From an uncultured Candidatus Saccharibacteria bacterium (GTDB taxonomy: Bacteria; Patescibacteriota; Minisyncoccia; Phycocordibacterales; CAIRYW01): 64,000 nt of DNA. Location: the NCBI GenBank assembly GCA_964386665.1, contig CAYLQP010000005.1, positions 177 through 64,176 of the forward strand, read 5' to 3'. Positions 26,285 through 56,829 of this stretch are shown one piece after another. A program made the position numbers and the translations under genes. Positions within the stretch are counted from its first letter, which is position 1, and each line of letters opens with the position of its first letter. The notes beneath the pieces were generated by a model that was not told the origin of the DNA, ran no database searches, and saw only the letters and a list, made by a program, of their open reading frames with translations.

Positions 26285-26320
26285 TAAAATAATTGTATAC
26301 CTAAATATAGAAATACAAAA

Positions 26321-26345
26321 CCCCCGCAAGCGAAGCTTGCGGGGG
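26321..26345. repeat. 25-nt GC-rich hairpin (cccccgcaagc-gaa-gcttgcggggg), copy 2 (inverted)
   Basis: Exact reverse complement of the hairpin at 23271-23295. Confidence 0.8.
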
Positions 26346-33900: not shown

Positions 33901-34429
33901 AATCCTTGTAGAGAAGTCCTTTCTTTTCAACTTCACCTACAACACCCCACAGGTTTTCGATATAAGAATTATGAAATGTGTAGTATGCGTTTTCCTGATC
34001 TACCCAGTATCCAATTCGTTTTGTAAATCTTCCCCAATCTTCAAGATACGTAAACACACTTTGTTTACATCTCTTGTTAAACTCTGCTACACCAAATTGT
34101 TCAATTTCTTTTTTGCTTTTAAGTCCGAGCTCCTTTTCTACTTGAAGCTCAACTGGCAGTCCGTGTGTGTCCCACCCGCCCTTTCGTCCAACTCGAAACC
34201 CTTGCATTGTCTTGTAACGAGGTAAACAATCTTTGAAACTTCGAGCCTCAAGATGATGAATCCCAGGACGACCGTTTGCAGTTGGAGGTCCTTCATAAAA
34301 CACAAAATCTCCCTTTGGGGATTCTTTTGTTAAGGTTTTGTGAAAGATATCTTTTTCTTCCCAAAAGGTAAGGATTCGCTCTTCTTCGAGCGCTCGGTCG
34401 CTTTTCTTTTCTACTTCTTCATTACTCAT
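30971..34429 (-). CDS. ileS: Isoleucine--tRNA ligase with an in-frame ~190-aa histidine-phosphatase (PGAM-like) domain insertion
   Basis: HIGH region (PPTANGRPGIHH), CP1 editing domain (WTTTPWTLPGN), KMSKS and a C-terminal Zn/anticodon region. The segment between WGTPLPIW and DVWFDSG is ~250 aa, against ~65 aa in E. coli, and contains FLMRHGEAEHN, an exact PROSITE PG_MUTASE match. Confidence 0.92.
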   Translation of the reverse strand: MSNEEVEKKSDRALEEERILTFWEEKDIFHKTLTKESPKGDFVFYEGPPTANGRPGIHHLEARSFKDCLPRYKTMQGFRVGRKGGWDTHGLPVELQVEKELGLKSKKEIEQFGVAEFNKRCKQSVFTYLEDWGRFTKRIGYWVDQENAYYTFHNSYIENLWGVVGEVEKKGLLYKDYKVLPWCPRCGTALSSHELAQGYEEVKDLSVYVKFKVVGQENTYILAWTTTPWTLPGNVALAVGKDIEYVKIKYKDSSDALVLAKERVSILEEGFEILEELKGTDFVGLEYEPLFPFLKENAPEGEQEKISNAFKVYAADFVNTTDGTGIVHIAPMYGADDFALGTKENLPKVHTVGEDGNFKGWCGFLAGRFAKEKDENGKPTLAVDIINELKHRNLFFKQENIKHTYPHCWRCKTPLLYFARDSWYIRMLSLRETLLSENQKINWEPDYIKEGRFGEWLREIKDWAISRERYWGTPLPIWENESKTKRVVIDSLTTLKQHTKVSGNKYFLMRHGEAEHNIKGVLSSDNEEVHHLTEKGRQDATKSAQILKDQNIDLIFYSPLTRTRETMEEVKKVLGDIKAIEDPRLAEEYFGILSGKPWEEFAKVYPNYMDRLLTKHEDLETLMDVKKRVGDFFYEIEKTFSGKNILIISHDGPMKLAKCVAQGAEDKEVESIYEPGAVFLEVGSYTPFEFIPLPHDEEYRLDFHKPFIDQVELIDDTGEKLTRVKEVMDVWFDSGAMPFAQNADGLGLETKLFPADFISEAIDQTRGWFYTLHAVGCLMGKGHAYKNVICLGHLLDKDGKKMSKSLGNVINPFEMINKYGVDTLRLWMYSVNQPGESKNFDERTVDEISKKVFNLFANVLSFYELYRDVSLEEETEVTSHSILDKWILSRLSSLVLTVETQMDSYKLLEPVRAMRDFIDDLSTWYLRRSRDRIREGDKEAKQTLYVVLKTLSKVMAPFAPFFAESVFLKLRHKDDKESVHLEEWPTVLGVSDSIEEEMKEARTTVTLALEARNKSNIKVRQPLRTLVIKKHIPDAYLEIIADEVNVKEVLVDANIEGEIKLDIVVTEDLREEGLLREFVRAIQDKRKEAGCSPTDVVEVALGVSDALRVMFEKEGYKDLVAKAVNARMFVVGEVSSETITIEGEIVSIQIQK

Positions 34430-40636: not shown

Positions 40637-41314
40637 TTACAGTTTTAATTCTCCTTTTACTTCCCCCCAAACAATCTCATGAATTTCTTCAATCGAACGA
40701 AGAGTGTCTCCATCCATACAATCAATGCGCTTCCAAAAAGGTTCCCGTTTGAGCATAAAGAGTCCTGCTTCTTTTGAGTTGTGTAAATATTCAAAATCAC
40801 TGTCCGCTACGTCTCTTACTCCCTCTCGAGCCAAGATCAGTTGTTTTGACACATCTTCAGACACATCAAGATACAACACCATATCAGGTTTTAATACGCC
40901 AAGTGTCTGGTATTCCATCACAGAAAGCCAATCAAGAAACTTGTTTCTTTCACTTTCTTCTTTCATCTTCCCTCCTTGATGAATCTGATTACTTGAAACA
41001 TAACGATCGAGTATCACCACCTTTCCTTTATCAAGCCAATGGCGCAACTGCGAAATAGTTTCAAACCGGTCACACGCATAGAGGACCGATGTCACCTTCG
41101 GATCCATCTGCATAAAATTTCCGTGATGGCCATCCAGACATTCTCGAATTAGTTTCCCAAAAAGATTTTTTTCGTATTGAGGAAACCGTAGTGTCTCAAC
41201 AGAAACCCCTTCTTTTTTTAGTCGCAAAAAAAGCGCTTCAGTCTGAGTTGTCTTCCCACTCCCATCGGTCCCTTCAATAACAATAAGTTTTCCTCGTTTT
41301 AATTCGTGATTCAT
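40637..41314 (-). CDS. tmk: Thymidylate kinase
   Basis: P-loop IVIEGTDGSGKTTQ, DRY motif (ILDRYVSS), and a LID region. Confidence 0.88.
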   Translation of the reverse strand: MNHELKRGKLIVIEGTDGSGKTTQTEALFLRLKKEGVSVETLRFPQYEKNLFGKLIRECLDGHHGNFMQMDPKVTSVLYACDRFETISQLRHWLDKGKVVILDRYVSSNQIHQGGKMKEESERNKFLDWLSVMEYQTLGVLKPDMVLYLDVSEDVSKQLILAREGVRDVADSDFEYLHNSKEAGLFMLKREPFWKRIDCMDGDTLRSIEEIHEIVWGEVKGELKL

Positions 41315-42360: not shown

Positions 42361-42714
42361 TTACTCGGGATTGCCAGTAACAACAACGAGTCCATTGTGG
42401 TCATCGGACATAACTTTGACATCATATCCACTTCCCATAATTGCATCTTCAAACGCTTGCAACTCCTCCATGGTGGTGTATTCCACCCCGAGGAAAACTG
42501 CAGGTCGTCCGTTTTGCACGGCTCGTACTGCTCTCGCTATCAAATCCGCTCCACCCCAAGCAATCGTTTCGTCACGACCGGCTTCGGAGAAATCAATCTC
42601 CCAAGACCAACCCTTCCGAACAAACTCTCCCAGGAGAGCTATTGGATTTTGACCACTTGGAACTTCACGAGTTTGACCTTCGTATGGTCCAGTCAAAGCA
42701 GTTACTTTGATCAT
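42361..42714 (-). CDS. Hypothetical protein (117 aa), mid-GC
   Basis: Clean ORF whose start codon lies 2 nt from repeat r1a. No motif. Confidence 0.4.
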   Translation of the reverse strand: MIKVTALTGPYEGQTREVPSGQNPIALLGEFVRKGWSWEIDFSEAGRDETIAWGGADLIARAVRAVQNGRPAVFLGVEYTTMEELQAFEDAIMGSGYDVKVMSDDHNGLVVVTGNPE

Positions 42715-42715
42715 A

Positions 42716-42880
42716 CCCTATCAGTCCACAAGGCTTTGCAGACTGAATTGGGAGGAGCTTCGATGTTACCAACACCGAAGCTCCTTGTAACCATTTTGCT
42801 TCCTCACGGAAGCAAAAATTTTTTCTCATTTTCAAAGGCAGAGAAATTCTCCTTCCTATTATTCATCCCGCATAGGTGCG
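42716..42880. repeat. Composite repeat module, copy 1: r1a (ccctatcagtccacaaggctttgcagactgaattgggaggag) + hairpin 1 + the ~93-bp r2a
   Basis: r1 recurs at 43732 and 46429. r2 (aaccattttgcttcctcacggaagcaaaa...cgcataggtgcg) recurs at 44094-44185 with one mismatch. Confidence 0.85.
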
Positions 42881-42888
42881 TTTGTTAC

Positions 42889-43590
42889 TTAATTATCAAC
42901 GATCTCCGTGCATTGTGACCAACACGGATGAGCTTTCTTACTCACCGGAAGGTTGTGTGCTTCATCAAGAGTCTTTTGCAGAACCTTAAGCAGGCTCTGC
43001 AAGACTTCTGCCGACATAAACATAGGCTCTGCCCATAGGTGAATTTCTGCCACCTGTTTACTGACCAACCCATTATGATCAGCCACCTCTTCGGCGATCA
43101 CAGCCCAAGGCCCAGAGGTCTCGAGGGTCCACGCCTGCCCCCACCAATAAGTGGTAGGGCGGCCATTGCCACCTTCTTCCAGTATGACTGGGAAATTTTG
43201 GTACGTGGCTGGCACGGTACTCCGTGCCGTTGGATAGTAACAATGAAGATTTTGCTGATAACCCTTCAGCAGAACCTTTTCATCCGCCTGGTGATGGCGG
43301 ATGATTTTATACGACACGCCCTTGTCGTATAAAAACTTCATGACAGGACATCCCGGGGGAGTCCGAAGAAAACAGTACGCAGACCGCGTACTGTTGTGAA
43401 AAGTTATGTACCCGTCGCTGGGTACATTAAATTTCCACAAATCTTTCTGCGCTGCACCCGAGGTGCTGCGCAGACAAAATTTTCCCTCCTCCATCCACCC
43501 CCACCAGGAGTGGTAAAAATTTTTCTGTTCCGTGGCGGAGGTGCCACGGAGTTCTTGTTTGATCTGGGCGATTATGAATGACCGTTCCAT
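42889..43590 (-). CDS. Hypothetical protein (233 aa), Trp/His-rich, mid-GC
   Basis: Sits between repeat module copies. No recognised motif. Confidence 0.4.
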   Translation of the reverse strand: MERSFIIAQIKQELRGTSATEQKNFYHSWWGWMEEGKFCLRSTSGAAQKDLWKFNVPSDGYITFHNSTRSAYCFLRTPPGCPVMKFLYDKGVSYKIIRHHQADEKVLLKGYQQNLHCYYPTARSTVPATYQNFPVILEEGGNGRPTTYWWGQAWTLETSGPWAVIAEEVADHNGLVSKQVAEIHLWAEPMFMSAEVLQSLLKVLQKTLDEAHNLPVSKKAHPCWSQCTEIVDN

Positions 43591-43731
43591 TTTTATTTTT
43601 CTTCCTTTAAATTCTCAGCGCGAAAGAAAACGCTATATCTGATTTTGTGCAGAGTTCTATTTATATTAACCTGCGTATTTTTATATCAAATCAGAAAGAT
43701 ATGTTTTGTTGGTTCAAAACCTAGGTTCACT

Positions 43732-43797
43732 CCTATCAATCCACAAGGCTTTGCAGACTGAATTGGGAGGAGCACAAGTAACCAAACTCGTGCTCCT
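43732..43797. repeat. Repeat r1b + hairpin 2 (aggagcacaag-taaccaaa-ctcgtgctcct)
   Basis: Same 5' flank gaattgggagga and the same loop taaccaaac as hairpins 1 and 3, but with a different, compensated stem sequence. Confidence 0.8.
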
Positions 43798-43825
43798 AAA
43801 TAAATGTTTCTCCTAATAAAAGGAG

Positions 43826-43852
43826 ATAAGGGAGACGGGACTCGAACCCGCA
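43826..43852 (-). tRNA. tRNA-like 3' fragment (T-arm GCGGGTTCGAGTCCCGT + acceptor 3' strand CTCCCTT); no 5' half found
   Basis: The reverse complement reads gcgggttcgagtcccgtctccctta, a canonical T-stem/T-loop. No D-arm or anticodon arm could be fitted upstream, so it looks like a remnant or attachment-site duplicate. Confidence 0.45.
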
Positions 43853-44049
43853 TAAGATTGTTACCACACCACGTTTTCCATTAAATCAAGCCATATGCAT
43901 CGAAAATCGATGCTTTTTGTACTTTTTTTAAAACGCGTAGCAGCTCCAATCCTCGATTGCTCGTACAGCCTTCGCAGGCTTGCGCTTTGTCCGATTTAAG
44001 CTACTCCCCCCTAAAGAACCCTATGAACCAACGACGCTTGTCGCGGGTT

Positions 44050-44185
44050 CAATTGGGAGGAAGTGCGACGTAACCAAACATCGCACTTCCTTTAACCATT
44101 TTGCTTCCTCACGGAAGCAAAAACTTTTTCTCATTTTCAAAGGCAGAGAAATTCTCCTTCCTATTATTCATCCCGCATAGGTGCG
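44050..44185. repeat. Hairpin 3 (ggaagtgcgacg-taaccaaaca-tcgcacttcc) + r2b (93-bp near-identical copy of r2a)
   Basis: 44094-44185 matches 42789-42880 with a single t/c difference. Confidence 0.85.
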
Positions 44186-44193
44186 GTGTTTTT

Positions 44194-45732
44194 TTAATTT
44201 GCAGACGACCGGGAGTTCCAGAATCTGCCAAGGGCGACGCGCGCAGTAGACTGCGCGCGCGACTCCTTATTGAGGAGCCACTGCACCGGGACAAAGCGCC
44301 GGTGTGCCCAGCCGTTCGCCGCCATAAAGGCGGCGGTGCCACGCTCGCAGTTGCCTGCAGCGTAGCTATCCGCGAGACAAGCGAGGACGGTAACGTTCGC
44401 CGGCAACTCCAGACCATTGGCTTTCGCCTCACGGTCTTGTGTTGCCCAGGCCTCGGCCGCAAGTCGGATGGCATACCTCTGCCAATACTTGGCAGATCCG
44501 CCGACTTTTTTTCCAGCATCCTCCTTAGGTCGGATTATTTCTAATCCGTTGCCCCAGGCACGGCTGACCTGGGACCATTCCGAGGTCTGGAGGATAGCCT
44601 CAGTTGGTTGCTCTGAAGGCAACCAACTGAGGTGATACGTCCGCCCTGTGGCAATATTCTTCACCACAGTCTGCCTGCGCAGACCAGTGCACCGCCGACG
44701 GTAAAAGTCGGCAACCAACCCCTCCACCACCTCGTGGCCGCGAAGTGTAGCTGAAGCCACAACAAACATTTTGACTCCGTCATCCTGCCGCATGGGCGGC
44801 AGAATGATTTGATCATAATGTTGCCCTTCCGCCATTCTCTGGCGGAAGAATTCCCGAGCCTCGGGCACCATCGCCCGCCACTGATCGTGGTGGAATCCGC
44901 GGAACCGAACGAATTCGGTGACGCGGAATTTTTCGATATGCACTCCAGTGAAGTGTGCGAGGGTCCGTAGGGCCAACCGCTGACCCAGCTTATTCCCGCG
45001 TTTTGGCCCGCGGGGAGCCGCAAGTTCACCCATCACAACCGTCCAAGGGACGGACTCAATCCCGAAGGGACCGAGAATTTCTTTCGCCCGGCAGAGGCCG
45101 GACGAAATCGCCCGGTATGCCCTGCCAGGTGTTTCCCACCTCTCCATCGAGGAGCCGGTGAGAAATGCGGTCATGTGACCGCAGTGATGATTGCGGGGCG
45201 AGTTCATTCCTCGCAACGGCGCTTTTGCGAGCGCCGTTGCGGCGCGGCGAAACCATGCGGGATGTTCCCCCACCAGTTCCCCCATGGCTTTCATCCAGCC
45301 TGCGGTGCGAGCGCACCGCTCCATGTCAGCGGCTGGCACTCTGTGCCAACCATGCCAGCACATGGAGCCTACAAACTGGCTGGGGCAGGTGCCCCAGTTC
45401 GATGGTAGGATAGGGGTTTCATTACCCCCCTCATATGTTGGTGGCCCTGATAGGGCTGCCAGTGCATCCTTGAGTGGCTTTTCGCCACTCGTGAGAATCC
45501 GCGCAATTACTGCACGGGTTGATGTGTCCCCCCAGCGGTTTGCACCACCGGGGAATTTATTTTTTTTACCAAACGCTCCTCTCGGGCGCACGAGGCGCCG
45601 ACAATCGGCCTCACGGCCGAGGAAGAAACGCAGGTCACGGATTGAAAACAATGAAAACTTCATTGTTTGATGACAGGTAACGTTACTGCAGACGGAAACT
45701 GTTTTTCGCAATATGCGAGTCGGATGTTTCAA
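44194..45732 (-). CDS. Hypothetical 512-aa protein in a ~60% GC insert (possible replication or transposition function; unassigned)
   Basis: An uninterrupted 1.5-kb ORF in GC-rich DNA, which is unlikely by chance. Rich in R, W, H and C. Contains AHFTGVHI and KYWQRY (YxxxY) about 160 aa apart, which weakly resembles HUH-nuclease motif order. No firm family assignment. Confidence 0.45.
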   Translation of the reverse strand: MKHPTRILRKTVSVCSNVTCHQTMKFSLFSIRDLRFFLGREADCRRLVRPRGAFGKKNKFPGGANRWGDTSTRAVIARILTSGEKPLKDALAALSGPPTYEGGNETPILPSNWGTCPSQFVGSMCWHGWHRVPAADMERCARTAGWMKAMGELVGEHPAWFRRAATALAKAPLRGMNSPRNHHCGHMTAFLTGSSMERWETPGRAYRAISSGLCRAKEILGPFGIESVPWTVVMGELAAPRGPKRGNKLGQRLALRTLAHFTGVHIEKFRVTEFVRFRGFHHDQWRAMVPEAREFFRQRMAEGQHYDQIILPPMRQDDGVKMFVVASATLRGHEVVEGLVADFYRRRCTGLRRQTVVKNIATGRTYHLSWLPSEQPTEAILQTSEWSQVSRAWGNGLEIIRPKEDAGKKVGGSAKYWQRYAIRLAAEAWATQDREAKANGLELPANVTVLACLADSYAAGNCERGTAAFMAANGWAHRRFVPVQWLLNKESRAQSTARVALGRFWNSRSSAN

Positions 45733-45966
45733 CGACTACTTTCTAGTTTTACCCTCCCTCATACGAGTTTAGGTTCCAGAAAAGCATTTTGACCGCAAAA
45801 TAAATTGTAGGCACAAAATGCTTTTCTGGAAAATCCTATCGCAAACAAAAACTTTGACACTTTTGTTTGCGAACAAGATGCAGAAAATTAACCAAAATTT
45901 TCTGCAAAAACCTTTCCAACACTTCACCCCACCACGGAGTATGGTAGTTGGCCTACCATCGTTTCT

Positions 45967-46395
45967 TCAGAGGTCGAATTGCTCAACCTCTTCGACACTG
46001 GCCGGGATGGCCAGCACGTTGGTCTCCCCGCGGGAGACCCTGTTGATCTCCCGCATCACTGCGGGAGACCCGAGTGACCGAAGCGCGAAGCGCGCTCCGG
46101 TCTTCCGCATCGGGATCATCCCAATGCGACCGAGTAGTTCGGCGCGACTCAGGTCGCGCCGAATGATTTCGAGAGGGAGAGCGATCTCGGTACCCTCCCC
46201 CTCAATGCGCAGTACAATCTTGACCAACTCCTGCGCGAGCTGGCGGGTGCGCCTTGCGGCAACCCAGAGAGCCACGGCGGCAATACCGCCGATGGCCCCG
46301 CAAATGTCGGCCACGCCACTGACGAAATCCATGAAACTCATGGCAGCCCCGGATCTACCCCGGTAACTCCGCAATTTTGAGCGCGTGATCCTCAA
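45967..46395 (-). CDS. Hypothetical 142-aa protein in the high-GC insert (one TM helix)
   Basis: Co-oriented with the 512-aa ORF. Hydrophobic segment FVSGVADICGAIGGIAAVALWVAA. Competing ORFs exist in other frames because of GC richness. Confidence 0.3.
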   Translation of the reverse strand: MRITRSKLRSYRGRSGAAMSFMDFVSGVADICGAIGGIAAVALWVAARRTRQLAQELVKIVLRIEGEGTEIALPLEIIRRDLSRAELLGRIGMIPMRKTGARFALRSLGSPAVMREINRVSRGETNVLAIPASVEEVEQFDL

Positions 46396-46428
46396 TTTTG
46401 AGCTGAAGTGAAATGCTCTAGGTTTTTT

Positions 46429-47239: not shown

Positions 47240-47995
47240 ATGTACCAAGAATATCTTGCAAAATCAGGGCTTTCGAAAGATCAGGCAACTATATATGACC
47301 TTCTTCTTCAATATGGAAATATTGGGGCTAGTAAGCTATCTAAACTCTCTGGGCTTAAACGAGGGCTCACCTACAAAGTGATTGATCAACTTATTGAACT
47401 TGGGCTTTGTGAGAAAAACGACAAACTATCGAAGATAACTCTTTTCTTCCCTGCCCATCCTTCAAAAATCAAAGAGTTATTTGAAAAGAAAAAAGAAGAA
47501 GCCAAACTTGCTGAAGAAGCACTTACGGGAATGATGGGACAAATGATCTCAACCTTTAACCTCGCTTCTGGTAAACCTAATGTGCAGTTTTTTGAGGGGC
47601 TGGAGGGGGTATGGAAAGTACTGGAAGATTCTTTGACTGCAACCACAACCATTGATGCGTACAGTGATATTGAATCAATCGAAAAATATATTCCTGAAGT
47701 AAATAAAAAATATGTAGAGAAGCGTGAAAAATTTAAAATCAAAAAACGAGGACTTATCCTCGATACTCCAAAAGCTCGCGCACTTCTTGAGGGATACCAT
47801 ACAGATGTAACAGAAAATAAATTTATAAAATGCTCACTTACTCCAAACCAAACACAGACAATCATTCAAATTTATGAAAACAAAGTTTCATTTATTACTC
47901 TTGGCGAAAACACAATGTTTGGAACAATTATTGAAGATATTCATATTTATGAATTACATAAATATCTCTACCAATCTTTGTGGGAGAAGTTTTAA
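47240..47995 (+). CDS. TrmB-like transcriptional regulator (N-terminal winged HTH)
   Basis: LSKDQATIYDLLLQYGNIGASKLSKLSGLKRGLTYKVIDQLIELGL matches a TrmB-type HTH. 251 aa. Confidence 0.55.
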   Translation: MYQEYLAKSGLSKDQATIYDLLLQYGNIGASKLSKLSGLKRGLTYKVIDQLIELGLCEKNDKLSKITLFFPAHPSKIKELFEKKKEEAKLAEEALTGMMGQMISTFNLASGKPNVQFFEGLEGVWKVLEDSLTATTTIDAYSDIESIEKYIPEVNKKYVEKREKFKIKKRGLILDTPKARALLEGYHTDVTENKFIKCSLTPNQTQTIIQIYENKVSFITLGENTMFGTIIEDIHIYELHKYLYQSLWEKF

Positions 47996-48003
47996 AAGAC
48001 CCA

Positions 48004-50766
48004 TTAACTTCTGCTGCTCAATGTAGGACCTCTATCAATCTTAGTTTTGTATTCCTCAAAAAGTTTTTTAGGCACTTTTTCTATAACAATAATTGCAAAA
48101 TTCTCTTCTTCGGTCAACTTTCTTTTAAAGAAACGTGTAACAACCCATTTTTCGTCCCCTTCTTCAAGTATTGAAAAATCCGTCTCGGCCACATTTTCCA
48201 AACGAGTCATCATTACCCTACACCTACCGTCTTCAAATTCATTCCACTGGAAAGGTATTACATTATCCATAACCATTTCTTCTGTATATTGTTTTGAAAT
48301 GAAAATACTGTTCATTGATTTATTTGAAACAATGTTCAAAGAAGAATCCTCTTCAAACTGGAACTGTCCTTCAGCTACAAATCCGCGTTCAATATACTTC
48401 GGAGTAACTGGTGCCCCTTTAGAACAGGTGGCAGTTACAATGTGTTTGTTCATTACTTCGTCTAGAGTCTCTTCCATCATCTTTTCACCGATTCTTCCCC
48501 CTTGAAAATCAGGATCGATATTGAATTTACCAAAATATACTTGATCTCCATTATATTCAAATACAACCACTCCAACTAATTCTCCTTTAAAGAAAAGAGT
48601 TTGAAATTCTGCATTTGGTTTTTTTAAACTTTCATCAAAACCTTCAAGTAACTGCGCCAACATTTTTGGTCTATCTTTATAGTTTTTTCTGTAAATTTCT
48701 TTAATAGCTCGTATTTGATCTGGGGTAATTGTATAATTCTCACCTGTAAAAAGATCGGTGTCTGGTAAATCATTAAAATCAATTCTTTCGCGTTCTGTTG
48801 ATTGCACTATCGATTGCATTAAGATAGCCTCAGCTGATACAGCTTCTATTTTTTTACAAATCGTTTCTGGGTTACCACCTTTTATTAAATCAACAACTCT
48901 ATTTAATATTTTAGTTCGGACTCTTTGCGGAATCTTTCCAGATGCAACATTTTTTACCCTTCTTCTTCTTTCAATTTGTGCAAAGGGATCATTTTTAAGG
49001 TCATCACTTAGTTCGTCTTCACCTACCTCCCCGATGACTTCATCAAAGTGATTTAACTCTGCCAAGATTTTAGCAACACTAATGCAAATCTTTTCAGCAT
49101 CCTCATCATTAAAGCGCTCAAATAAATCTAAAACATACCCTTTGAACTCTTCACCCTCTAAGTTTAAGAGGATAAAAAATTTGAGTCCATTCTCACCAAG
49201 ACGTTTAGTCATTTGAACTATTCGATTTTTTTCAACATGATCAGCTTTTTGCCAAACCACAAACAAGGCACCTTGTTCTTTGAATGTAAGATTATTTAAG
49301 TCTGCTTCTGTATTATGAAAAAGCTCCCCATCCGCAAAACCAAAATAGCCTTTTTGAAACTCTGCAACATATTCCTCTCGCTCTTTTTTTTGCTCTTCAG
49401 TTTCATCAGGTTTTGGAATAAAAAGAGTTTCATACACAAATTCCATAACTCGGGCTTTTACAACATCATCTAAAGAATCCACTTCAGCTAATTTAAAATA
49501 TCCAGTCAATTGGTCATTTCCATCAAATACTCCAACCTCGCCATTAGGCGTAAGTCTTCTTACAAAATAGTTTGGATCATTTTGCTCAGCTAGATCATAC
49601 ATTTTCTCTAGATACCTCACTCCACTTTCTGAGACACCGATACGCCCAAACTCAAGTCTATATAACACAGCTGTCAAAGCATTCTTGTTTTTAGCCTCGC
49701 CTTTTATTTTTTCTAATAAACCTTTTGCCGCCCTATGAGGATCTTGTGCAACCAGAGCTTCAGTTGTTGCATTGGCAAAGATAGGGTTACGGTTTTTATC
49801 CCAAAATTCAACAAGTAAATCCGTTGTTTCTCCTGTATCATCCTTTACTTTTTTGATCTCATCTAACACAGCAAGTAGCATTCGGTGGTGTGGGTATTCC
49901 TCTACGGCACCTCCATGAGCAGCGGTATTATCCATTTGATATTGAAACCATTCTTGAGCTTGGTTATAGGCATTGCTTGGCTGAAATGTTCCGTACAACA
50001 TTGAATGTGCAACATTGTGTCGGGAAGTTTGATTAAATCTTTTCACACTAGCAGCTGAGAATACACTATTGTTTGTTTCTTCAAATACAAGTGAGTACTG
50101 AAGAATAGAGAGAGCTGTCTGAAGAAATCTTATTTTATCTGCTGTTGGTAATTTATCATATGCTTCTCCTTGAAACATGTTGCCTGTCTCTAATCTTTCA
50201 TCTAAGCCCAAAGATTGAGAGTTTGCATTATCAAAGGTTTCCAGAAATTCTTTGGAAGCTTCTCCAAAATCACTTATTCTTCTAAAAATATCAAAACTAT
50301 AATTTGATAGTAAGTGCGCCGGCGCGAGTTTACGACGGTCATGTACTGCGGCCCATTTATCTGATTGAACAAATCCCACACCTTCTGAAGAAGGTTCTTT
50401 AATATCTTCACCTAACCCAGCACAGATAGCCCACAAATTATATTCTCGACTACTTCTAGGTAATCTTTGAGATTCAATATATGACTTAAAAGCATCTAAT
50501 TCATTTGGAAAAACTTCAAAATACCTATTTGCAATATCGGGAGTAACCCTGAGATCTACCAAGGACATGGACAACCAAAACATCCGCGTGCCAACATCTA
50601 CTTCTTTGAGTGTGTTTAAATTTGATTCTTCAAAAAAATCAACCGGACTTCTAGAAAATTTTTCGACCCACAACTCAATTTCTTTATCAGAACCAACAGA
50701 AAGCTCGTATGCTTCCAAATACGCATCACTATTTTCTAATCCTTCTGGTGGAAATTCTTTTGGCAT
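48004..50766 (-). CDS. Large (920-aa) protein with an internal GNAT acetyltransferase domain
   Basis: Residues ~690-800 are GNAT-like (LVGVVVFEYNGDQVYFGKFNIDPDFQGGRIGEKMMEETL; the Q/RxxGxG/A acetyl-CoA motif is QGGRIG). The N-terminal ~680 aa are unrecognised. Its start abuts the glyA stop. Confidence 0.6.
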   Translation of the reverse strand: MPKEFPPEGLENSDAYLEAYELSVGSDKEIELWVEKFSRSPVDFFEESNLNTLKEVDVGTRMFWLSMSLVDLRVTPDIANRYFEVFPNELDAFKSYIESQRLPRSSREYNLWAICAGLGEDIKEPSSEGVGFVQSDKWAAVHDRRKLAPAHLLSNYSFDIFRRISDFGEASKEFLETFDNANSQSLGLDERLETGNMFQGEAYDKLPTADKIRFLQTALSILQYSLVFEETNNSVFSAASVKRFNQTSRHNVAHSMLYGTFQPSNAYNQAQEWFQYQMDNTAAHGGAVEEYPHHRMLLAVLDEIKKVKDDTGETTDLLVEFWDKNRNPIFANATTEALVAQDPHRAAKGLLEKIKGEAKNKNALTAVLYRLEFGRIGVSESGVRYLEKMYDLAEQNDPNYFVRRLTPNGEVGVFDGNDQLTGYFKLAEVDSLDDVVKARVMEFVYETLFIPKPDETEEQKKEREEYVAEFQKGYFGFADGELFHNTEADLNNLTFKEQGALFVVWQKADHVEKNRIVQMTKRLGENGLKFFILLNLEGEEFKGYVLDLFERFNDEDAEKICISVAKILAELNHFDEVIGEVGEDELSDDLKNDPFAQIERRRRVKNVASGKIPQRVRTKILNRVVDLIKGGNPETICKKIEAVSAEAILMQSIVQSTERERIDFNDLPDTDLFTGENYTITPDQIRAIKEIYRKNYKDRPKMLAQLLEGFDESLKKPNAEFQTLFFKGELVGVVVFEYNGDQVYFGKFNIDPDFQGGRIGEKMMEETLDEVMNKHIVTATCSKGAPVTPKYIERGFVAEGQFQFEEDSSLNIVSNKSMNSIFISKQYTEEMVMDNVIPFQWNEFEDGRCRVMMTRLENVAETDFSILEEGDEKWVVTRFFKRKLTEEENFAIIVIEKVPKKLFEEYKTKIDRGPTLSSRS

Positions 50767-50768
50767 AT

Positions 50769-51947
50769 TTATTTCTTCCCTCGCAAGACTTTATCGATCT
50801 TTTGGGCGATTTTGACGAAGTCCACCTCCTTCTTTCCTCGTGTGGTTTCTGCTGGACTTCCAAGTCGGATTCCAGATGGGTCAAATGGACTTCGTGTTTC
50901 TCCCGGAATTGTGTTTTTGTTACAAATCATCCCTGCTTTCTCGAGAAGTGCTTCGGCGTCTTTTCCAGGAAGACCCTTCCCACCCATCCATGTATCAACA
51001 AGTACAATGTGTGAATCAGTCCCTTTTGAAACAATTCTCCATCCAAGTCTCGATAGTTCTTTGGCGAGTGCACGAGCATTTTTGATGACTTGTTTTGCAT
51101 ATGTCTTAAATTTTGGATCCATAGCTTCTTTGAGTGCAACCGCAACCGCAGCAATTTGACTCATATGTGGACCTCCTTGAATAGATGGAAACACAGCTTT
51201 GTCTATTTTTTTGTTTAGTTCTCTTTCATCTTTTTTTGCAAAGATAAGCGCTGAACGAGGACCTCGAAGTGTCTTATGAGTGGTGGTTGTAACGATATCA
51301 GCGTAAGGAAAAGGGCTCGGGTAAGCCTTCCCTGCTATAAGTCCTGCGATATGAGACATATCAACCATAAGGAGTGCTCCGCAGGCATCTGCAATTTCTC
51401 TAAATTTTTTCCAATCAACCACTCGTGGATATGCAGTGAATCCTGCTACTATGAGAGCTGGTTTTTCTTCTAGTGCGATTTTTTTTACTGCATCATAATC
51501 AATGAGCTCGGTGTTTGGATCAACAAAAAATGGTACTCGTTGCCACACTTTTCCTGTGATTGATACTTTCTGAGCATGCGAGAGATGTCCTCCAGATGAA
51601 AGCTCCATTCCCATAATTTTTGCACCTAAAGGTACTGCCCCGAGATATGCAGCAAGATTTGCATTTGCACCACTTAACGCCTGAACATTAACATGCCAAT
51701 TATCTTTCTTGAGTCCAAAGAGTTTAAGTGTTCGCTCCTGACAAAGAAGCTCTAATTTATCTGTGTTATCTTGCCCTCCATAATATCTTGCGTGAGGATA
51801 CCCTTCAGCATACTTATTATCAAAGATAGACCCAAGAGCTTCGAGTACATCTTTAGAACAATAATTTTCTGATGGAATAATGTTGAGAACTCTTTTTTGT
51901 CTTTTTGTTTCGTCTTGTATAAGCTTTTTGATTTGTATGTCTTTCAT
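50769..51947 (-). CDS. glyA: Serine hydroxymethyltransferase
   Basis: PLP-lysine region (TTTTHKTLRGPRSALI) and full-length SHMT similarity, 392 aa. Confidence 0.93.
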   Translation of the reverse strand: MKDIQIKKLIQDETKRQKRVLNIIPSENYCSKDVLEALGSIFDNKYAEGYPHARYYGGQDNTDKLELLCQERTLKLFGLKKDNWHVNVQALSGANANLAAYLGAVPLGAKIMGMELSSGGHLSHAQKVSITGKVWQRVPFFVDPNTELIDYDAVKKIALEEKPALIVAGFTAYPRVVDWKKFREIADACGALLMVDMSHIAGLIAGKAYPSPFPYADIVTTTTHKTLRGPRSALIFAKKDERELNKKIDKAVFPSIQGGPHMSQIAAVAVALKEAMDPKFKTYAKQVIKNARALAKELSRLGWRIVSKGTDSHIVLVDTWMGGKGLPGKDAEALLEKAGMICNKNTIPGETRSPFDPSGIRLGSPAETTRGKKEVDFVKIAQKIDKVLRGKK

Positions 51948-52038
51948 ATTATTGAAGTTTAAAAAATAATCTACAAATAAAGAGAGTAAGGTTTATTCAG
52001 TTGTAATAATCTTAAATCATAATTAGTAGTGCTACATT

Positions 52039-52533
52039 TTATTTAAATACCTTTTCGCTTCCTTTCATAAGGTATACATTTATTATACCAGCTGAAATTA
52101 TAGAGTCGAAACAGGGCTTACAACACCACCAATGACCCCATAAGTAAAGGTCTGCCCCTTTTACTTTTTGAGTACCATATTTGTTGGTTGCATCTCGAAC
52201 AGCCGAAGCTTCTGCGTGGTTTTTGTTGGTAACACATCCTGGACAAACCCAGTATTTTGTACCACTTTTAACCTTGAGCCACTTTCGAAGACAAGCGCCC
52301 TTACCATGAAGACGGGTAAACCATTTTTGTTTGAATGTGGCACAATTTGCCCCATATCCAATAATTTCATTACCTTTAACTATTACGGCACCTGTTGGGT
52401 GATGAAGATCTGTGCTGTGCTGAAGAGAAAACCTCTTTGCTTCTTGTAAAAAAGAATTATCCTCGTCCACATAGAGAATAGTCCAGCCTTCTGGCATATA
52501 CGGATAATTTATATGTTTTGATTCATTACTCAT
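52039..52533 (-). CDS. dCMP deaminase-like cytidine/deoxycytidylate deaminase
   Basis: Zinc motifs HAEASA (H-A-E) and PCxxC (CKPCFDSI). 164 aa. Divergent from the thyA-like gene with an 18-bp gap. Confidence 0.75.
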   Translation of the reverse strand: MSNESKHINYPYMPEGWTILYVDEDNSFLQEAKRFSLQHSTDLHHPTGAVIVKGNEIIGYGANCATFKQKWFTRLHGKGACLRKWLKVKSGTKYWVCPGCVTNKNHAEASAVRDATNKYGTQKVKGADLYLWGHWWCCKPCFDSIISAGIINVYLMKGSEKVFK

Positions 52534-52551
52534 TAGGATTATAATACCAGT

Positions 52552-53421
52552 ATGACAAAATTTGACCAGATATATACAAACATATTAAAAAATATTCTAA
52601 AGAACGGGATTGAGGAAACTTCGACTCTTCAGAAGGTCAAGACAAAGGCACTTCCTGGGGTTCATTTTCAGATAGATATTGAAAAGGATGGTTTCCCTCT
52701 TCTGACTCTTCGTAAGATCCCAGTAAAACTTTTTGTAGCTGAACAAATCTGGTTTATTTCAGGAGCCCGAAAACCAGAAGACTTCTTGCGAGATTACACA
52801 AAAATCTGGGACGCATTCACAAATCCAAACGATGTTGTTACTGTTGCGTACGGATACAGATGGCGCAAACATTTTGGGAGAGACCAGATTGGTGCGCTTG
52901 TAAAACTTCTTCAAAAAGAACCCTTAAGTCGCCACGGTGTTGTTATCGCTTGGGACCCAGGAGCTGATGGACTTTCTCTTATCAAAAAAGCAAATGTTCC
53001 CTGTCCCTATTCATTTACAGTAAATATTATTGGTGGCAGACTCCATCTCCACAACATTGTTCGATCAAATGATATGTATCTTGGGTTTCCCGCGGACGTG
53101 GCAGGGTTTGCATTGCTTCAATGCATCCTCGCCCAAAAACTTGGCGTACGACCTGGTATATACAGTCACTCCATTTCAAATTCGCATATTTATGAAAACC
53201 AATTTGATGCAACTAATGAGTTAATAAAAAGAAAAAACAATCACAAAAATATCTCTGTAAAACTCCCACACAACACCTTTGACCGTGCAGAAAAAAAGGA
53301 CAAAAAACTTGCCGAAGAAATTATCCAAATGTTTGAAAAACAATACTCCCCTCTCGAGAATATAAAAGGGGTCAAAATCACTACTTGGAATGACCAAGTA
53401 AAAAAACAAAAAAGGAAGTAG
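52552..53421 (+). CDS. thyA: ThyA-family pyrimidine C5 methyltransferase/hydroxymethylase homologue; Asp at the uracil-selecting Asn position, so substrate specificity is uncertain (dUMP vs dCMP)
   Basis: DGFPLLTLRK, EQIWFISG, YGYRWRKH and the catalytic Cys151 in NVPCPYSF align to E. coli ThyA. RSNDMYLGFPADVAGFALL aligns to RSCDVFLGLPFNIASYALL, so Asn177 corresponds to Asp182 (gac at 53095-53097). Confidence 0.85.
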   Translation: MTKFDQIYTNILKNILKNGIEETSTLQKVKTKALPGVHFQIDIEKDGFPLLTLRKIPVKLFVAEQIWFISGARKPEDFLRDYTKIWDAFTNPNDVVTVAYGYRWRKHFGRDQIGALVKLLQKEPLSRHGVVIAWDPGADGLSLIKKANVPCPYSFTVNIIGGRLHLHNIVRSNDMYLGFPADVAGFALLQCILAQKLGVRPGIYSHSISNSHIYENQFDATNELIKRKNNHKNISVKLPHNTFDRAEKKDKKLAEEIIQMFEKQYSPLENIKGVKITTWNDQVKKQKRK

Positions 53422-53509
53422 GACCTACGCTTTTTTAACCTTAACAACAACATTTAAATAAAAAAATGTAAGGATTGTGCTCTTTTGGCTATTTTGTATA
53501 CTTATCTAT

Positions 53510-54163
53510 ATGGCAATACTTACCCAAAAGCAGATTTTAGAAAGGGTCCAATCAGGCAATATTGGATTTAAACCTGGTCTTGATGAATTTCAAGTTCAAG
53601 CCCATGCAATCGATATGCGACTTGGTTATACGTTTTTACTTCCTAAGAGCTGGCATCTTACAGACAAGGGTCGTGAAGCGCTCTATATAGACCACTATGA
53701 CAAGAACCGGCAAGACTATTTCGATGTGATTGAGCTTGAAAAAGGACAGATATTTGAACTGCTTCCTGGTGAATACGTCCTTGCCTCAACTCTTGAAAGT
53801 GTAAAGATTCCAGACGACCTTATGGCAGTCCTTTATCCTCGAAGTTCAACGAACCGAAAAGGACTTTCAGTTGACCTTACTGGAATCATCGACTCAGGAT
53901 ATGAAGGTCAACTTGTTATCCCTATTCGAAACAACACAGGTTCTCAAGTAGTGAAACTATATCCCGGAGAACGGTTTTGCCAGATTGTCTTTGAACGTCT
54001 TGAAGAGTCAGTCACTGCAGAAAAAAGTCGATATCATATGAAAGATATTGTCGATGGATTTATCCAAACAAAAGATGGTAAGAAAAAAAGAGATCTCGAC
54101 GAACTTCAATATGTATCAAATGGCAAGATTACAGAATTAAAAGCTGAAAGAAAAATACAATGA
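53510..54163 (+). CDS. dcd: dCTP deaminase (dUTPase-fold)
   Basis: Dcd-family similarity throughout (LPGEYVLASTLESVKIPDDLMAVLYPRSSTNRKGLSV...IDSGYEGQLVIP). The start is set at MAILTQKQIL. Confidence 0.8.
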   Translation: MAILTQKQILERVQSGNIGFKPGLDEFQVQAHAIDMRLGYTFLLPKSWHLTDKGREALYIDHYDKNRQDYFDVIELEKGQIFELLPGEYVLASTLESVKIPDDLMAVLYPRSSTNRKGLSVDLTGIIDSGYEGQLVIPIRNNTGSQVVKLYPGERFCQIVFERLEESVTAEKSRYHMKDIVDGFIQTKDGKKKRDLDELQYVSNGKITELKAERKIQ

Positions 54164-54498
54164 CATTTGATGATTATGAAAAAATAGCAAGGACCACAGA
54201 CTCAACTCAAGGACATCCTTTTATTTCTGCCAAGTTTATGTCAATTGTTTTGGGACTCGCTGGAGAAACAGGAGAAATAATGGAAAAATTTAAAAAAATC
54301 TGTTGGCACAAAGAAGGTGTCTGGACCGAAGAAGACAAAAAAGAACTAGCAAAAGAACTTGGTGATGTGCTCTGGTATACATCTTCTCTTGCAGGACACG
54401 TTGGTTTGTCTCTTGAAGAGATTGCAAAACAAAATCTAGAAAAAATAAAAAGCAGAGTTGACCGAGGAGTACACCAGGGATTTGGTGATAACCGGTAG
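54160..54498 (+). CDS. MazG-like nucleoside-triphosphate pyrophosphohydrolase (small all-alpha NTP-PPase)
   Basis: 112 aa. EExxE-type motif region (LAGETGEIMEKFKK...ELGDVLWY). Overlaps the dcd stop (ATGA). Confidence 0.7.
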   Translation: MTFDDYEKIARTTDSTQGHPFISAKFMSIVLGLAGETGEIMEKFKKICWHKEGVWTEEDKKELAKELGDVLWYTSSLAGHVGLSLEEIAKQNLEKIKSRVDRGVHQGFGDNR

Positions 54499-54839
54499 AG
54501 CTGAAATAGAGTGAAGAGCGTAGTATGTGGAACGTAGATAAACAAAAACTACATACCATAAGCGAAGCGGACTACATATAACATACAAATCAACGGATCC
54601 CGTTAGAAAACAAATATAACCATTTACAACCTCAAACTTATGAAAAAACAAAACCCATCCATCAATTACCTTTATAAGCAATTATCTAACGTTTTCTAAA
54701 CGGGATGAATGGGGTAGTAGAAAATGACATTGTATAAATACCTAAAAAAATAAATCAACATATGCAAGTCATACACTTAACAAAATTATTTAAACAAAAT
54801 GAAGTTGCTCAATAGAGCTATGTCATTTTTCACTACCCC

Positions 54840-55550
54840 ATGAAAATATCAGTTATTATCCCAGCTCTCAATGAAGAAACGCGTATTGTATCTACCCTTG
54901 AACAGGTGGGAGGTTTTTTGGAGCAACATGATATTAACGCAGAAATTATCACTGTGGATGATGGGTCCACTGATGCAACAGAATTTGTTAGTCATGAGAC
55001 ACTGCGACGCAGACACACTCCTTATAAAGTTATTCGTCACAAAACCAATGCAGGAAAAGGAGCTGCCATTGCAACAGGTATCAAGCATTCGACCGGAGAT
55101 TATATTCTTTTTCTTGATGCTGACGGATCTACCAACATCAAGGAATTAAAAAGATTTTTTACTTATATTAATCCTGCCACACTTCTTATTGGCTCTCGTC
55201 AAAAAAATAAAAACCTTATTCTTATCGACCAAGGATACGGAAGAAAAATACTTGGTTTTTTTACTCAACTCTTTCATAAAATATTTTTTAGACTTCCTGT
55301 ACTTGATAGTCAGTGTGGCTTCAAATTACTTCCAAAAAGTCTCGCAATCTCCTTTATTCGCAAACCATATCCAAAACGCTTCGGATTTGATATCGCACTC
55401 ATCGACTATGCACTTAAGTGTGGATTTGAAGTTGAAGAGATTGGTGTAGAATGGAAAGATATTTCAGGAAGTAATGTACGACCGTTTGTTGATATATTTA
55501 AAACTGCCTTTGAACTTTTGATTTACAAAATTAATAGCCTAAAACAATAA
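54840..55550 (+). CDS. GT2-family glycosyltransferase (DPM1-like / dolichyl-phosphate sugar transferase-like)
   Basis: VIIPALNEE...ITVDDGSTD...FLDADGS (DxD). 236 aa. Confidence 0.75.
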   Translation: MKISVIIPALNEETRIVSTLEQVGGFLEQHDINAEIITVDDGSTDATEFVSHETLRRRHTPYKVIRHKTNAGKGAAIATGIKHSTGDYILFLDADGSTNIKELKRFFTYINPATLLIGSRQKNKNLILIDQGYGRKILGFFTQLFHKIFFRLPVLDSQCGFKLLPKSLAISFIRKPYPKRFGFDIALIDYALKCGFEVEEIGVEWKDISGSNVRPFVDIFKTAFELLIYKINSLKQ

Positions 55551-55552
55551 CC

Positions 55553-56062
55553 ATGATTCATACATTTATTATTGCAGCGCAAACACTTGATGGATTTATC
55601 GCAAAAGATAGCAATCATCCTGCCTTCTGGACAAGCAAGGAGGACAAAAAACGATTTGTTGAACTCACTCAAAGAGCCGGAGTATGTGTGATGGGTTCTC
55701 AAACATTTAAAACCCTCCCTCGTCCACTCAAAGAACGACATAACGTAGTTTACTCAAGAAAAGAACAGTTCGAAGGTGAAAACGTAGAAACCACTTCTCT
55801 TCCCCCTATTGAACTGATCACTAATCTTGAAGCAAAAGGTTACAAAGAAGTTGCGATCTGTGGTGGCTCAAGTATTTATACAATGTTTCTAAAAGCGGGT
55901 GTTGTAGACACGATTTATCTCACTATTGAACCAAAACTATTTGGAAAAGGTATGACGCTTTTTTCTGATGATATGAATATCGAAGTTGAACTTGTCTCTC
56001 ACGAAAAAACAGAAGGAGGAACTTTACTTCTTGAATACAAAGTAAAAGGAAAGATGATATGA
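55553..56062 (+). CDS. folA: Dihydrofolate reductase
   Basis: FIIAAQTLDGFIAKD...VMGSQTFKTLPRPLKERHNVVYSRK...ICGGSSIYTMFL parallels the E. coli DHFR motifs [24 protein letters not shown] and VIGGGRVYEQFL. Confidence 0.7.
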   Translation: MIHTFIIAAQTLDGFIAKDSNHPAFWTSKEDKKRFVELTQRAGVCVMGSQTFKTLPRPLKERHNVVYSRKEQFEGENVETTSLPPIELITNLEAKGYKEVAICGGSSIYTMFLKAGVVDTIYLTIEPKLFGKGMTLFSDDMNIEVELVSHEKTEGGTLLLEYKVKGKMI

Positions 56063-56175: not shown

Positions 56176-56829
56176 TTATTCAAGAACAAGGAAAGATGGG
56201 ACCCCGGACTCCCCTTGCACAATATCTAACAATGAACGACCTAGTGCTTGGGCTACTCCAAAGACTTTTGCCAGAAGATCAGCAATTTCACCCTCTTGTT
56301 CCTGAGGAGCTGTATGTACTGCTTCTGCCACTTCCCACGCCTCTTCCAAGCAATGGGTACAGATTTCCCAAAGCGGTGTCTCTGGATAAATCGAATCAAT
56401 CATTTGTTGTAGCAGGTCCAAAGTATCATACTGCAAAGGAAGAACAGGTTGGAGATTAGCTTTTTCTTCGCTTGGTCCAGAATGATGTACTCCTCTTTTC
56501 CTTCCTTTTGAACATTGACAGGGGACATTGCCACACCAGGGACAGACACCTGGATATTTTGTGACAAGAACTTCCGTCGCATCAATCGCCAATGAGTTAC
56601 AAAGCGCGAGAGTAGCAAACAAAAGTTTTGTCAAAAACTTTGGGATATCTTCTGGGCAACCCCTTCGGTTACTCTTACTTACTTTCTTGCCCAGTGACCA
56701 ATTACCCAAGTGATGTCCTTGGGTGTTTTGTCTCCAGGAAAAGCCAGATCTTGTAGATCTTTTAGTGAATCGAGAGTTTTCATATTTTCTACCTCTAAAC
56801 TTACTTTCTTTTGAGAAAAAGTCAAACAC
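56176..56829 (-). CDS. Hypothetical protein with a Cys-cluster and a C-terminal MazG/HisE-like NTP-pyrophosphohydrolase-like segment; GC-enriched
   Basis: CPWCGNVPCQC; the C-terminus LWEICTHCLEEAWEVAEAV...EIADLLAKVFGVAQALG resembles MazG-type helices. Start uncertain; possibly two fused reading frames. Confidence 0.3.
   Translation of the reverse strand: MFDFFSKESKFRGRKYENSRFTKRSTRSGFSWRQNTQGHHLGNWSLGKKVSKSNRRGCPEDIPKFLTKLLFATLALCNSLAIDATEVLVTKYPGVCPWCGNVPCQCSKGRKRGVHHSGPSEEKANLQPVLPLQYDTLDLLQQMIDSIYPETPLWEICTHCLEEAWEVAEAVHTAPQEQEGEIADLLAKVFGVAQALGRSLLDIVQGESGVPSFLVLE

Follow-up and report, generated by a model that had tools for sequence, protein, structure and literature searches.

How does a bacterium make thymidylate when its homologue of thymidylate synthase (TS) carries aspartate at the position where asparagine normally selects uracil? 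The question is raised by a 64-kb stretch of DNA (64,000 nucleotides, hereafter the window) from contig CAYLQP010000005.1 of an uncultured Candidatus Saccharibacteria bacterium, in which a ThyA-family gene lies among genes of pyrimidine and folate metabolism. The original prediction, made from the letters of this stretch, offered two readings: (i) the enzyme, here called ThyA(D), methylates deoxycytidine monophosphate (dCMP) to 5-methyl-dCMP, which an adjacent deaminase turns into deoxythymidine monophosphate (dTMP), or (ii) it belongs to a cytosine-modification pathway of the kind known from phages, leading to 5-methylcytosine or 5-hydroxymethylcytosine with possible glycosylation. The first is the best-supported reading, with a precedent in the phages Xp12 and PaMx74: with a probability of about 0.6, Parcubacteria and Paceibacteria would obtain thymidylate via 5-methyl-dCMP, ThyA(D) methylating dCMP, the deaminase yielding dTMP and thymidylate kinase (Tmk) phosphorylating it.

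The Asp-type signature of ThyA(D) and its relatives

Against solved TS chains of the PDB, HMMER sets RSADIFLGVPFNIASYALL opposite RSNDMYLGFPADVAGFALL of open reading frame (ORF) 52552-53421, ungapped and in an unambiguous register, and MAFFT alignments with Escherichia coli ThyA place Asp182 in the same column, that of Asn177 (residue numbers of the canonical enzyme are those of E. coli). Since the two methods agree on the column, the reservation that the cycle would be ordinary if the first alignment were off by one register falls, whereas the assignment of Asp182 itself stands, as does the reading of PCP where canonical enzymes have PCH. Among L. casei chains, the PDB search scored the N229D mutant (1njc) highest. 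In full, Asn148, Cys151, Pro152, Asp182, His128 and Ala181 of ThyA(D) correspond to L143, C146, H147, N177, R127 and F176 of the E. coli enzyme. Thus Asn177 and His147, which in canonical TS contact O4 and N3 of deoxyuridine monophosphate (dUMP), are replaced by aspartate and proline; the equivalents of the catalytic Cys146 and of E58, Y94, R126, R166, D169, H207 and Y209 are kept, and those of R21 and R127 are not (L/T and H instead).

Table 1. Positions of the genes and codons discussed, counted from the first letter of the window
Feature	Position	Strand	Evidence
ThyA-family ORF, ThyA(D); predicted dCMP C5-methylase producing dihydrofolate	52552..53421	+	Pfam Thymidylat_synt E=4.3e-50
Codon of Asp182 (gac), at the uracil-selecting Asn177 position of E. 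coli TS	53095..53097	+	
Codons of catalytic Cys151 (tgt 53002-53004) and Pro152 (ccc 53005-53007); PCP replacing PCH	53002..53007	+	
Zinc deaminase of dCMP-deaminase fold; predicted 5-methyl-deoxycytidine nucleotide deaminase	52039..52533	-	Pfam dCMP_cyt_deam_1 7.3e-14
DCD/dUTPase-superfamily protein; predicted deoxynucleoside triphosphate pyrophosphatase	53510..54163	+	Pfam DCD 2.2e-34
Codon of Pro138 (cct) of the DCD-like protein	53921..53923	+	
Serine hydroxymethyltransferase (glyA); regenerates 5,10-methylene-tetrahydrofolate	50769..51947	-	Pfam SHMT 6.4e-156
Dihydrofolate reductase; recycles dihydrofolate from TS-type reductive methylation	55553..56062	+	Pfam DHFR_1 3.5e-19
Thymidylate kinase	40637..41314	-	P-loop motif; Pfam Thymidylate_kin 8.9e-23
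Small MazG-type NTP pyrophosphohydrolase; variable accessory	54160..54498	+	Pfam MazG 1.4e-11; phrog_229 1.8e-30
GT2 glycosyltransferase, inside the operon here	54840..55550	+	Pfam Glycos_transf_2 9.7e-25

A fold search with the AlphaFold model of ThyA(D) confirms a TS fold; the model has a predicted local distance difference test (pLDDT) score below 50 at residues 83-104 and 135-150, including the stretch directly before the catalytic cysteine, and is unreliable around the folate and cysteine loops. At the level of functional models, seven of the eight NCBIfam thyA equivalogs score ThyA(D) far below their cut-offs (e.g. 136 vs 327) and one, TIGR03284, is narrowly passed (113.2 vs a cut-off of 108.35). 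These scores bear on an ordinary thymidylate cycle, in which ThyA(D) would use dUMP, or both dUMP and dCMP, the Asp/Pro pair would be compensated lineage-specific drift, and dUMP would be supplied by the dCMP deaminase next to ThyA(D) and by dUTPase. The pass of TIGR03284 agrees with such a cycle, as does the name thyA, which annotation pipelines and the literature on the candidate phyla radiation (CPR) give to the gene; the seven failing equivalogs argue against it. So does the effect of the substitution itself: a metavirome genotype-phenotype study, in which position 177 separates cytosine-modifying from canonical TS best and position 147 second best, cites work showing that Asn-to-Asp at the 177 position shifts the preference of the L. 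casei and E. coli enzymes to dCMP.

The substitution is shared by the whole family. Database homologues of ThyA(D) number 2263 at E<=1e-10, and residues were counted in the best 120 of these (69-100% identity), which come from Parcubacteria, Paceibacterota, Taylorbacteria and similar bins. Aspartate occupies the position in all 112 that match the motif pattern, asparagine in none, and PCP is present in 119 of the 120. When one genome per species was scanned, relatives were found in 275 species; the best 80, whose loci were compared, all belong to Patescibacteria (Kaiser-, Nomura-, Adler-, Taylor- and Colwellbacteria, Paceibacterota and Minisyncoccia) and have aspartate in 74/74 readable motifs. 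Aspartate at the Asn177 position is a family trait and no one-off mutation.

A wider search, covering 1.84 billion cluster representatives, returned only Asp-type enzymes among its best 64 matches, canonical ones appearing from about E=1e-34. Among the top 150 representatives, positions 147 and 177 co-vary (93 P/D, 28 H/N, 2 H/D and 1 P/N), R127 and F176 shift together with them (F176 to Ala or Ser), and 83 combine Asn, Pro and Asp at positions 143, 147 and 177. In pairwise blastp comparisons ThyA(D) scores 170 bits with the PaMx74 enzyme, 157 with that of Xp12, 101 with E. coli ThyA and 30 with T4 gp42, and the Xp12/PaMx74 group also supplies its best matches in the phage database. Neighbour-joining of 138 sequences gave a tree in which the least inclusive clade with both the window protein and the Xp12 TS has 106 leaves, all Asp-type; Asn-type enzymes group apart, in a clade of their own. 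By these comparisons, the closest characterised relatives of ThyA(D) are dCMP methylases, and neither thymidylate synthases nor hydroxymethylases: when expressed in E. coli, the TS of Xp12 and five Asp-type homologues from metaviromes have been shown to yield 5-methyl-dCMP or 5-methyl-deoxycytidine (5-methyl-dC). That positions 147 and 177 co-vary almost perfectly, and that ThyA(D) shares an all-Asp clade with a proven dCMP methylase, is difficult to reconcile with drift in an enzyme of the ordinary cycle.

Cytosine recognition as such would also suit a dCMP hydroxymethylase or hydroxylase, leading to 5-hydroxymethylcytosine or 5-hydroxycytosine, perhaps followed by glycosylation through the GT2 enzyme, as Asp177 is common to T4 gp42, MilA and the 5-hydroxy-dCMP synthases. 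According to a paper of 2026, a non-acidic residue at the position of E. coli L143 goes with methylation, and Asp or Glu with hydroxymethylation or hydroxylation; residue 143 is asparagine in ThyA(D), as in Xp12, which, together with the 30 bits to T4 gp42, makes the hydroxymethylation of reading (ii) unlikely. The TS-like hydrophobic C-terminus of most Asp-type family members points away from it as well.

The window protein departs from most of its family in this last respect. It belongs to a subclade (289-292 residues; P0001-P0024, L007-L012) in which the motif around the Arg21 equivalent has changed from SERTG to TSTLQK (residues 22-31) and the protein ends in a basic C-terminal extension, …TWNDQVKKQKRK (residues 275-289), in place of the …GLKIVL of most family members. 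Closure of the TS active site involves Arg21 and the C-terminus acting together, and the two changes look like a coupled alteration of the two closing elements.

Several fusions were seen among the Asp-class representatives, namely dCMP deaminase-TS, PRA-PH (MazG-like)-TS and HNH endonuclease-TS (P0143, P0190 and P0147). The first two may be taken as Rosetta-stone support for a functional trio of pyrophosphatase, methylase and deaminase. Beyond the Parcubacterial family, the closest relatives are found on phage-like contigs with a terminase and many small ORFs (L088/L089 with P0125, 47% identity; L087 with P0121, 56%), and in L089 the genes for an Asp-type TS, a canonical dUTPase and a dCMP deaminase are consecutive. 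This hints at gene flow of the thymidylate module between phages and CPR hosts.

The conserved module and its chromosomal setting

Gene neighbourhoods were counted in those 44 of the 80 species loci that have at least 3 kb on both flanks, and a gene was included if it lay at most 4 kb from ThyA(D). By this measure the deaminase and the DCD-like gene accompany ThyA(D) in 44 loci each, DHFR in 43, Tmk and SHMT in 41 each and MazG in 14. The conserved module has six genes (SHMT, Tmk, the divergent dCMP-deaminase-like gene, ThyA(D), the DCD-like gene and DHFR), in which the deaminase gene lies divergently directly upstream of ThyA(D) and the DCD-like gene directly downstream. A cluster of seven genes had been predicted from the window; the seven ORFs do belong to the families named (Pfam), but the set that is conserved is the six-gene one, which includes Tmk.

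The tight linkage of DHFR (43/44) argues for a reductive methylation that produces dihydrofolate (DHF), as the original prediction had proposed from the window's own DHFR gene, and the linkage of Tmk (41/44) argues for dTMP as the end product. A hydroxymethylase releases tetrahydrofolate (THF) and would have no need of DHFR. For the glycosylation half of reading (ii), the GT2 gene within the operon of the window was the attraction; as a DNA-glycosylation partner it was rejected, being a local insertion that is missing from 79 of the 80 relatives and lies 8 kb away in the one that has it. With residue 143, the score against T4 gp42 and the C-terminus added, hydroxymethylation or hydroxylation by ThyA(D) is judged extremely improbable.

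The accessory positions of the cluster are more variable. The start of the MazG ORF, which shows weak similarity to YpjD and DCTPP1, overlaps the stop of the DCD-like gene by 4 nt, and one slot between the DCD-like gene and DHFR is filled differently, by a canonical dUTPase in L007 and L012 and by a small MazG in L008, L010 and the window. Such a swap in close relatives suggests non-orthologous replacement between deoxynucleoside triphosphate (dNTP) pyrophosphatases; over the whole comparison, a canonical dUTPase (Dut) is present in the cluster of 26 of the 80 relatives. A second MazG-related protein was observed just beyond DHFR: ORF 56176-56829 (-), of 217 residues, matches MazG weakly at its C-terminal end (E=7e-5), and its N-terminal half is rich in cysteine (CPWCGNVPCQC). 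The protein gave no PDB or PHROG match and occurs in only 1/80 relatives (L061).

In relatives tmk and glyA are neighbours, and in two of them (L003 and L005) tmk is adjacent to the deaminase gene; in the window, tmk is set apart from the cluster by about 9.5 kb of inserted DNA. Within the insertion lie a GC-rich island, the gene of a TrmB-like regulator (47240-47995) and that of a 920-residue protein with a GNAT domain (48004-50766). The island (42500-46400) reaches 60% GC in 300-nt windows against a background of about 38%, and its ORFs (42889-43590 -, 44194-45732 -, 45818-46366 +) have no Pfam match and no meaningful Rfam match. The DNA between tmk and glyA was probably acquired.

The module adjoins the genes for L11, NusG and SecE and lies downstream of those for RecO, IleRS and ArgRS, on contigs of 0.3-0.7 Mb (maximum 0.69 Mb), and the best relative of ThyA(D) in IMG/VR has 38% identity. 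On the strength of this conserved neighbourhood and of the IMG/VR result, the ThyA(D) cluster is a chromosomal housekeeping module. Prophage or viral cargo was considered and ruled out by the same conserved ribosomal-protein, NusG, SecE, ArgRS and IleRS surroundings, the size of the contigs and the 38% ceiling in IMG/VR.

No second TS was detected within the 64-kb window, in which neither a ThyX RHRxxS motif inside an ORF nor a further TS motif occurs; that the genome as a whole would have no other TS is presumed in what follows. Elsewhere in the window, the isoleucyl-tRNA synthetase (30971-34429, -) has a His_Phos_1 domain embedded at residues 507-670, an insertion that is kept in distant Parcubacteria relatives (L003 1113-4502, L005 883-4365). 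For a 1005-residue ORF (23312-26329, -), Pfam gave no match. At the edge of the window (1-580, -) is the 5′ end of a 23S rRNA, and no 16S rRNA was detected within the 64 kb.

The deaminase, the DCD-like protein and the proposed route

The divergent gene begins (cat 52531-52533) 18 bp from the thyA ATG, the distance originally given, and encodes a protein with an HAE motif at residue 106, CKPC at 138 and an extra CPGC at 97. The HAE and CxxC positions are invariant across 42 homologues, and the protein family also has a second Cys/His cluster. The predicted structure (pLDDT 85.8) finds its best folds in the dCMP deaminases of human, PBCV-1, S-TIM5 and T4, which is consistent with a dCMP-deaminase fold. 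The gene is adjacent and divergent to ThyA(D) in 77/80 relatives, and in 44/44 of those with both flanks. A functional coupling of deaminase and ThyA(D) is thus supported by an invariant divergent arrangement and by the existence of deaminase-TS(D) and PRA-PH-TS(D) fusions elsewhere in the Asp class. A comparable association has been reported from metaviromes, where deaminase and TS are linked in 70% of cytosine-modified contigs and in 6% of unmodified ones.

The protein forms a Patescibacteria-specific subfamily. It was also compared with the 5-methylcytosine (5mC)-selective deaminases of Xp12 and PaMx74, of which it could have been an orthologue; no significant similarity was found (blastp E ~0.2), and MAFFT misaligned the motifs of the window and phage proteins. 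The level at which these phage systems act is of interest here. For Xp12-like phages it has been proposed, with support from label tracing, that thymidine nucleotide derives from deaminated 5-methyl-dC nucleotides at the triphosphate level, and the phage-linked deaminase mSCD-B5 acts on 5-methyl-deoxycytidine triphosphate (5-methyl-dCTP), not on 5-methyl-dCMP. In animal cells handling salvaged 5mC, by contrast, 5-methyl-dCMP is deaminated to dTMP and not phosphorylated, and it is because animal cells do so that the conversion of 5-methyl-dCMP to dTMP is chemically plausible.

The DCD-like protein was originally labelled dcd. Membership of the DCD family holds, and the ORF even passes the TIGR02274 dCTP-deaminase cut-off (117.7 vs 92.8); the function does not hold. 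When it was compared with the Dcd proteins of M. tuberculosis and E. coli, the best alignment partner was the bifunctional M. tuberculosis enzyme, and Pro138 was found at the position of the catalytic glutamate (E. coli E138, M. tuberculosis E129), as it is in 75/75 loci and 120/120 DCD-like homologues. This glutamate is essential for deamination by Dcd. The protein was therefore ruled out as a deaminase of deoxycytidine triphosphate (dCTP), and as a supplier of deoxyuridine triphosphate (dUTP) and dUMP. It resembles Dcd and the bifunctional DCD-DUT enzymes in fold, in length and in the nucleotide-site equivalents of Ser111, Arg115 and Asp128, which are invariant, and differs from them in the proline at Glu138, so that deamination is not expected, and in a dUTPase-like motif 3 (GIIDSGYEGQL) around that residue. 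Since a true Dut is present alongside it in 26/80 clusters, the protein is unlikely to serve simply as the cellular dUTPase. It may instead be a dNTP pyrophosphatase, possibly one that converts dCTP to dCMP, a step for which phages use MazG-, HAD- or gp56-type enzymes and for which the Glu-less DCD-like protein would be the candidate counterpart here.

The route via 5-methyl-dCMP can then be set out as follows, its substrates, products, order of steps and phosphate level of deamination being those that we infer from the genes. First, dCTP would be cleaved to dCMP by the Glu-less DCD-like pyrophosphatase, assisted by MazG in some genomes. Second, ThyA(D), with its D182/P152/N148 signature, would use 5,10-methylene-THF to convert dCMP to 5-methyl-dCMP and DHF, and the cofactor would be regenerated by DHFR and SHMT. 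Third, the divergent deaminase would convert a 5-methylcytosine nucleotide to a thymine nucleotide, in the cell most likely 5-methyl-dCMP to dTMP, which would pass onward via Tmk. The outcome would be dTMP made without dUMP as the methyl acceptor.

Much the same gene set can be read differently. As in Xp12, chromosomal cytosine in Paceibacteria and Parcubacteria might be largely or wholly replaced by 5mC before replication, in which case the DCD-like protein and MazG would be dCTPases, the clustered kinase would phosphorylate 5-methyl-dCMP and the deaminase would draw deoxythymidine triphosphate from the 5-methyl-dCTP pool. The equality of the gene set with the Xp12/PaMx74 module (pyrophosphatase, TS(D), deaminase and DHFR) is in keeping with this, as are the presence of a kinase in the cluster, the preference of mSCD-B5 for 5-methyl-dCTP over the monophosphate level, and the possibility that a dCTP-binding fold devoid of deaminase activity could serve as a dCTPase. 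On the other side, the clustered kinase is an ordinary member of the Tmk family, the deaminase is unrelated to the 5mC-selective ones of phages, and the sequence data lend direct support in neither direction. A search of the literature found no report of globally 5mC-substituted Patescibacteria DNA. More generally, we know of no cellular genome that is fully 5mC-substituted, which counts against such a scheme. We consider it very unlikely.

Several points weigh against the route via 5-methyl-dCMP. The specificity of ThyA(D) is deduced from residues and homology, and 2/7 Asp-type phage TS gave no detectable 5-methyl-dC in the E. coli expression screen mentioned above. Catalytic competence is less certain for the window subclade than for the main family because the Arg21 equivalent is lost and the basic C-terminal extension is present. 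The 5mC selectivity of the phage deaminases cannot, on the blastp comparison given above, be transferred to the Parcubacterial deaminase by homology, and conversion of dCMP to dUMP would be just as possible for this enzyme; such a deaminase, together with the canonical Dut of 26/80 clusters, fits the classical dUMP route. Indeed, all the neighbours (SHMT, DHFR, Tmk, dCMP deaminase and, in those 26, Dut) are classical genes of the dTMP cycle. Set against this are the DCD homologue, which is devoid of the residue required for dUTP production, and the evidence from mutants, co-variation, phylogeny and equivalog scores described for ThyA(D). An ordinary cycle is accordingly regarded as unlikely, and methylation of dCMP followed by deamination as the reading to be preferred.

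Significance and comparison with known systems

Both the enzyme class and the logic of methylating first and deaminating later are already known from phages. A literature search found no description of an Asp-type TS or dCMP methylase in Patescibacteria/CPR, nor a paper on such a route in cellular organisms, and CPR papers treat the gene as an ordinary thyA. What is new, in the sense of not being described in the literature found, is that a large bacterial lineage would rely on such an enzyme, paired with a Glu-less DCD-like protein, in its conserved chromosomal module for thymidylate. If the route via 5-methyl-dCMP is correct, it would be a third route to thymidylate besides ThyA acting on dUMP and ThyX, one in which methylation comes first, deamination second and dUMP is bypassed. 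An abundant uncultivated bacterial class would then use chemistry that has until now been recorded solely in phages whose genomes contain 5mC, and a phage DNA-modification toolkit would be tied to cellular core metabolism. In practice, (i) the annotations 'thyA' and 'dcd' would need revision in thousands of Patescibacteria genomes, (ii) models of nucleotide exchange and folate dependency of these symbionts would change, and (iii) the family may offer a cellular reservoir of candidate 5-methylcytosine-acting deaminases, of interest for methylation sequencing. Were the genome-wide substitution by 5mC to prove true instead, a base replaced before replication would for the first time be found in a cellular genome.

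Three groups of characterised enzymes provide the frame for comparison. With canonical ThyA (EC 2.1.1.45), ThyA(D) shares the TS fold, the catalytic cysteine, the coupling to DHFR and SHMT and, in most members of the family, the hydrophobic C-terminus; it differs in having Asp, Pro, Asn and His for N177, H147, L143 and R127 and Ala or Ser for F176, and in falling into a separate clade. With T4 gp42, MilA and the 5-hydroxy-dCMP synthases of RB69 and DLP3, it shares the aspartate at 177 and hence, presumably, the recognition of cytosine, whereas in those enzymes residue 143 is acidic and residue 147 is not proline (D/T/D at 143/147/177 in T4 gp42), and no DHF is produced.

The closest match is the dCMP C5-methyltransferase (EC 2.1.1.54) of Xp12 and PaMx74, at 31-33% identity. 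It has the same N143/P147/D177 signature and NVPCP motif, lacks the 'AWPTPDG' loop of the E. coli enzyme and carries a 'DGL' insertion just as ThyA(D) does, and has comparable neighbours, namely an NTP pyrophosphohydrolase or HAD hydrolase, a dCMP deaminase and DHFR. Differences exist at each level: position 127 is arginine in Xp12 and histidine in ThyA(D), the deaminase of the window comes from the Patescibacteria-specific subfamily, and a Glu-less DCD-like protein stands where the phages have a HAD/MazG hydrolase. Substitution of the DNA by 5mC is a feature of the phage to which nothing in the bacterial sequence points. Finally, unlike its phage counterparts, which serve DNA modification, ThyA(D) is linked to Tmk and SHMT and is a chromosomal housekeeping gene, beside ribosomal-protein genes.

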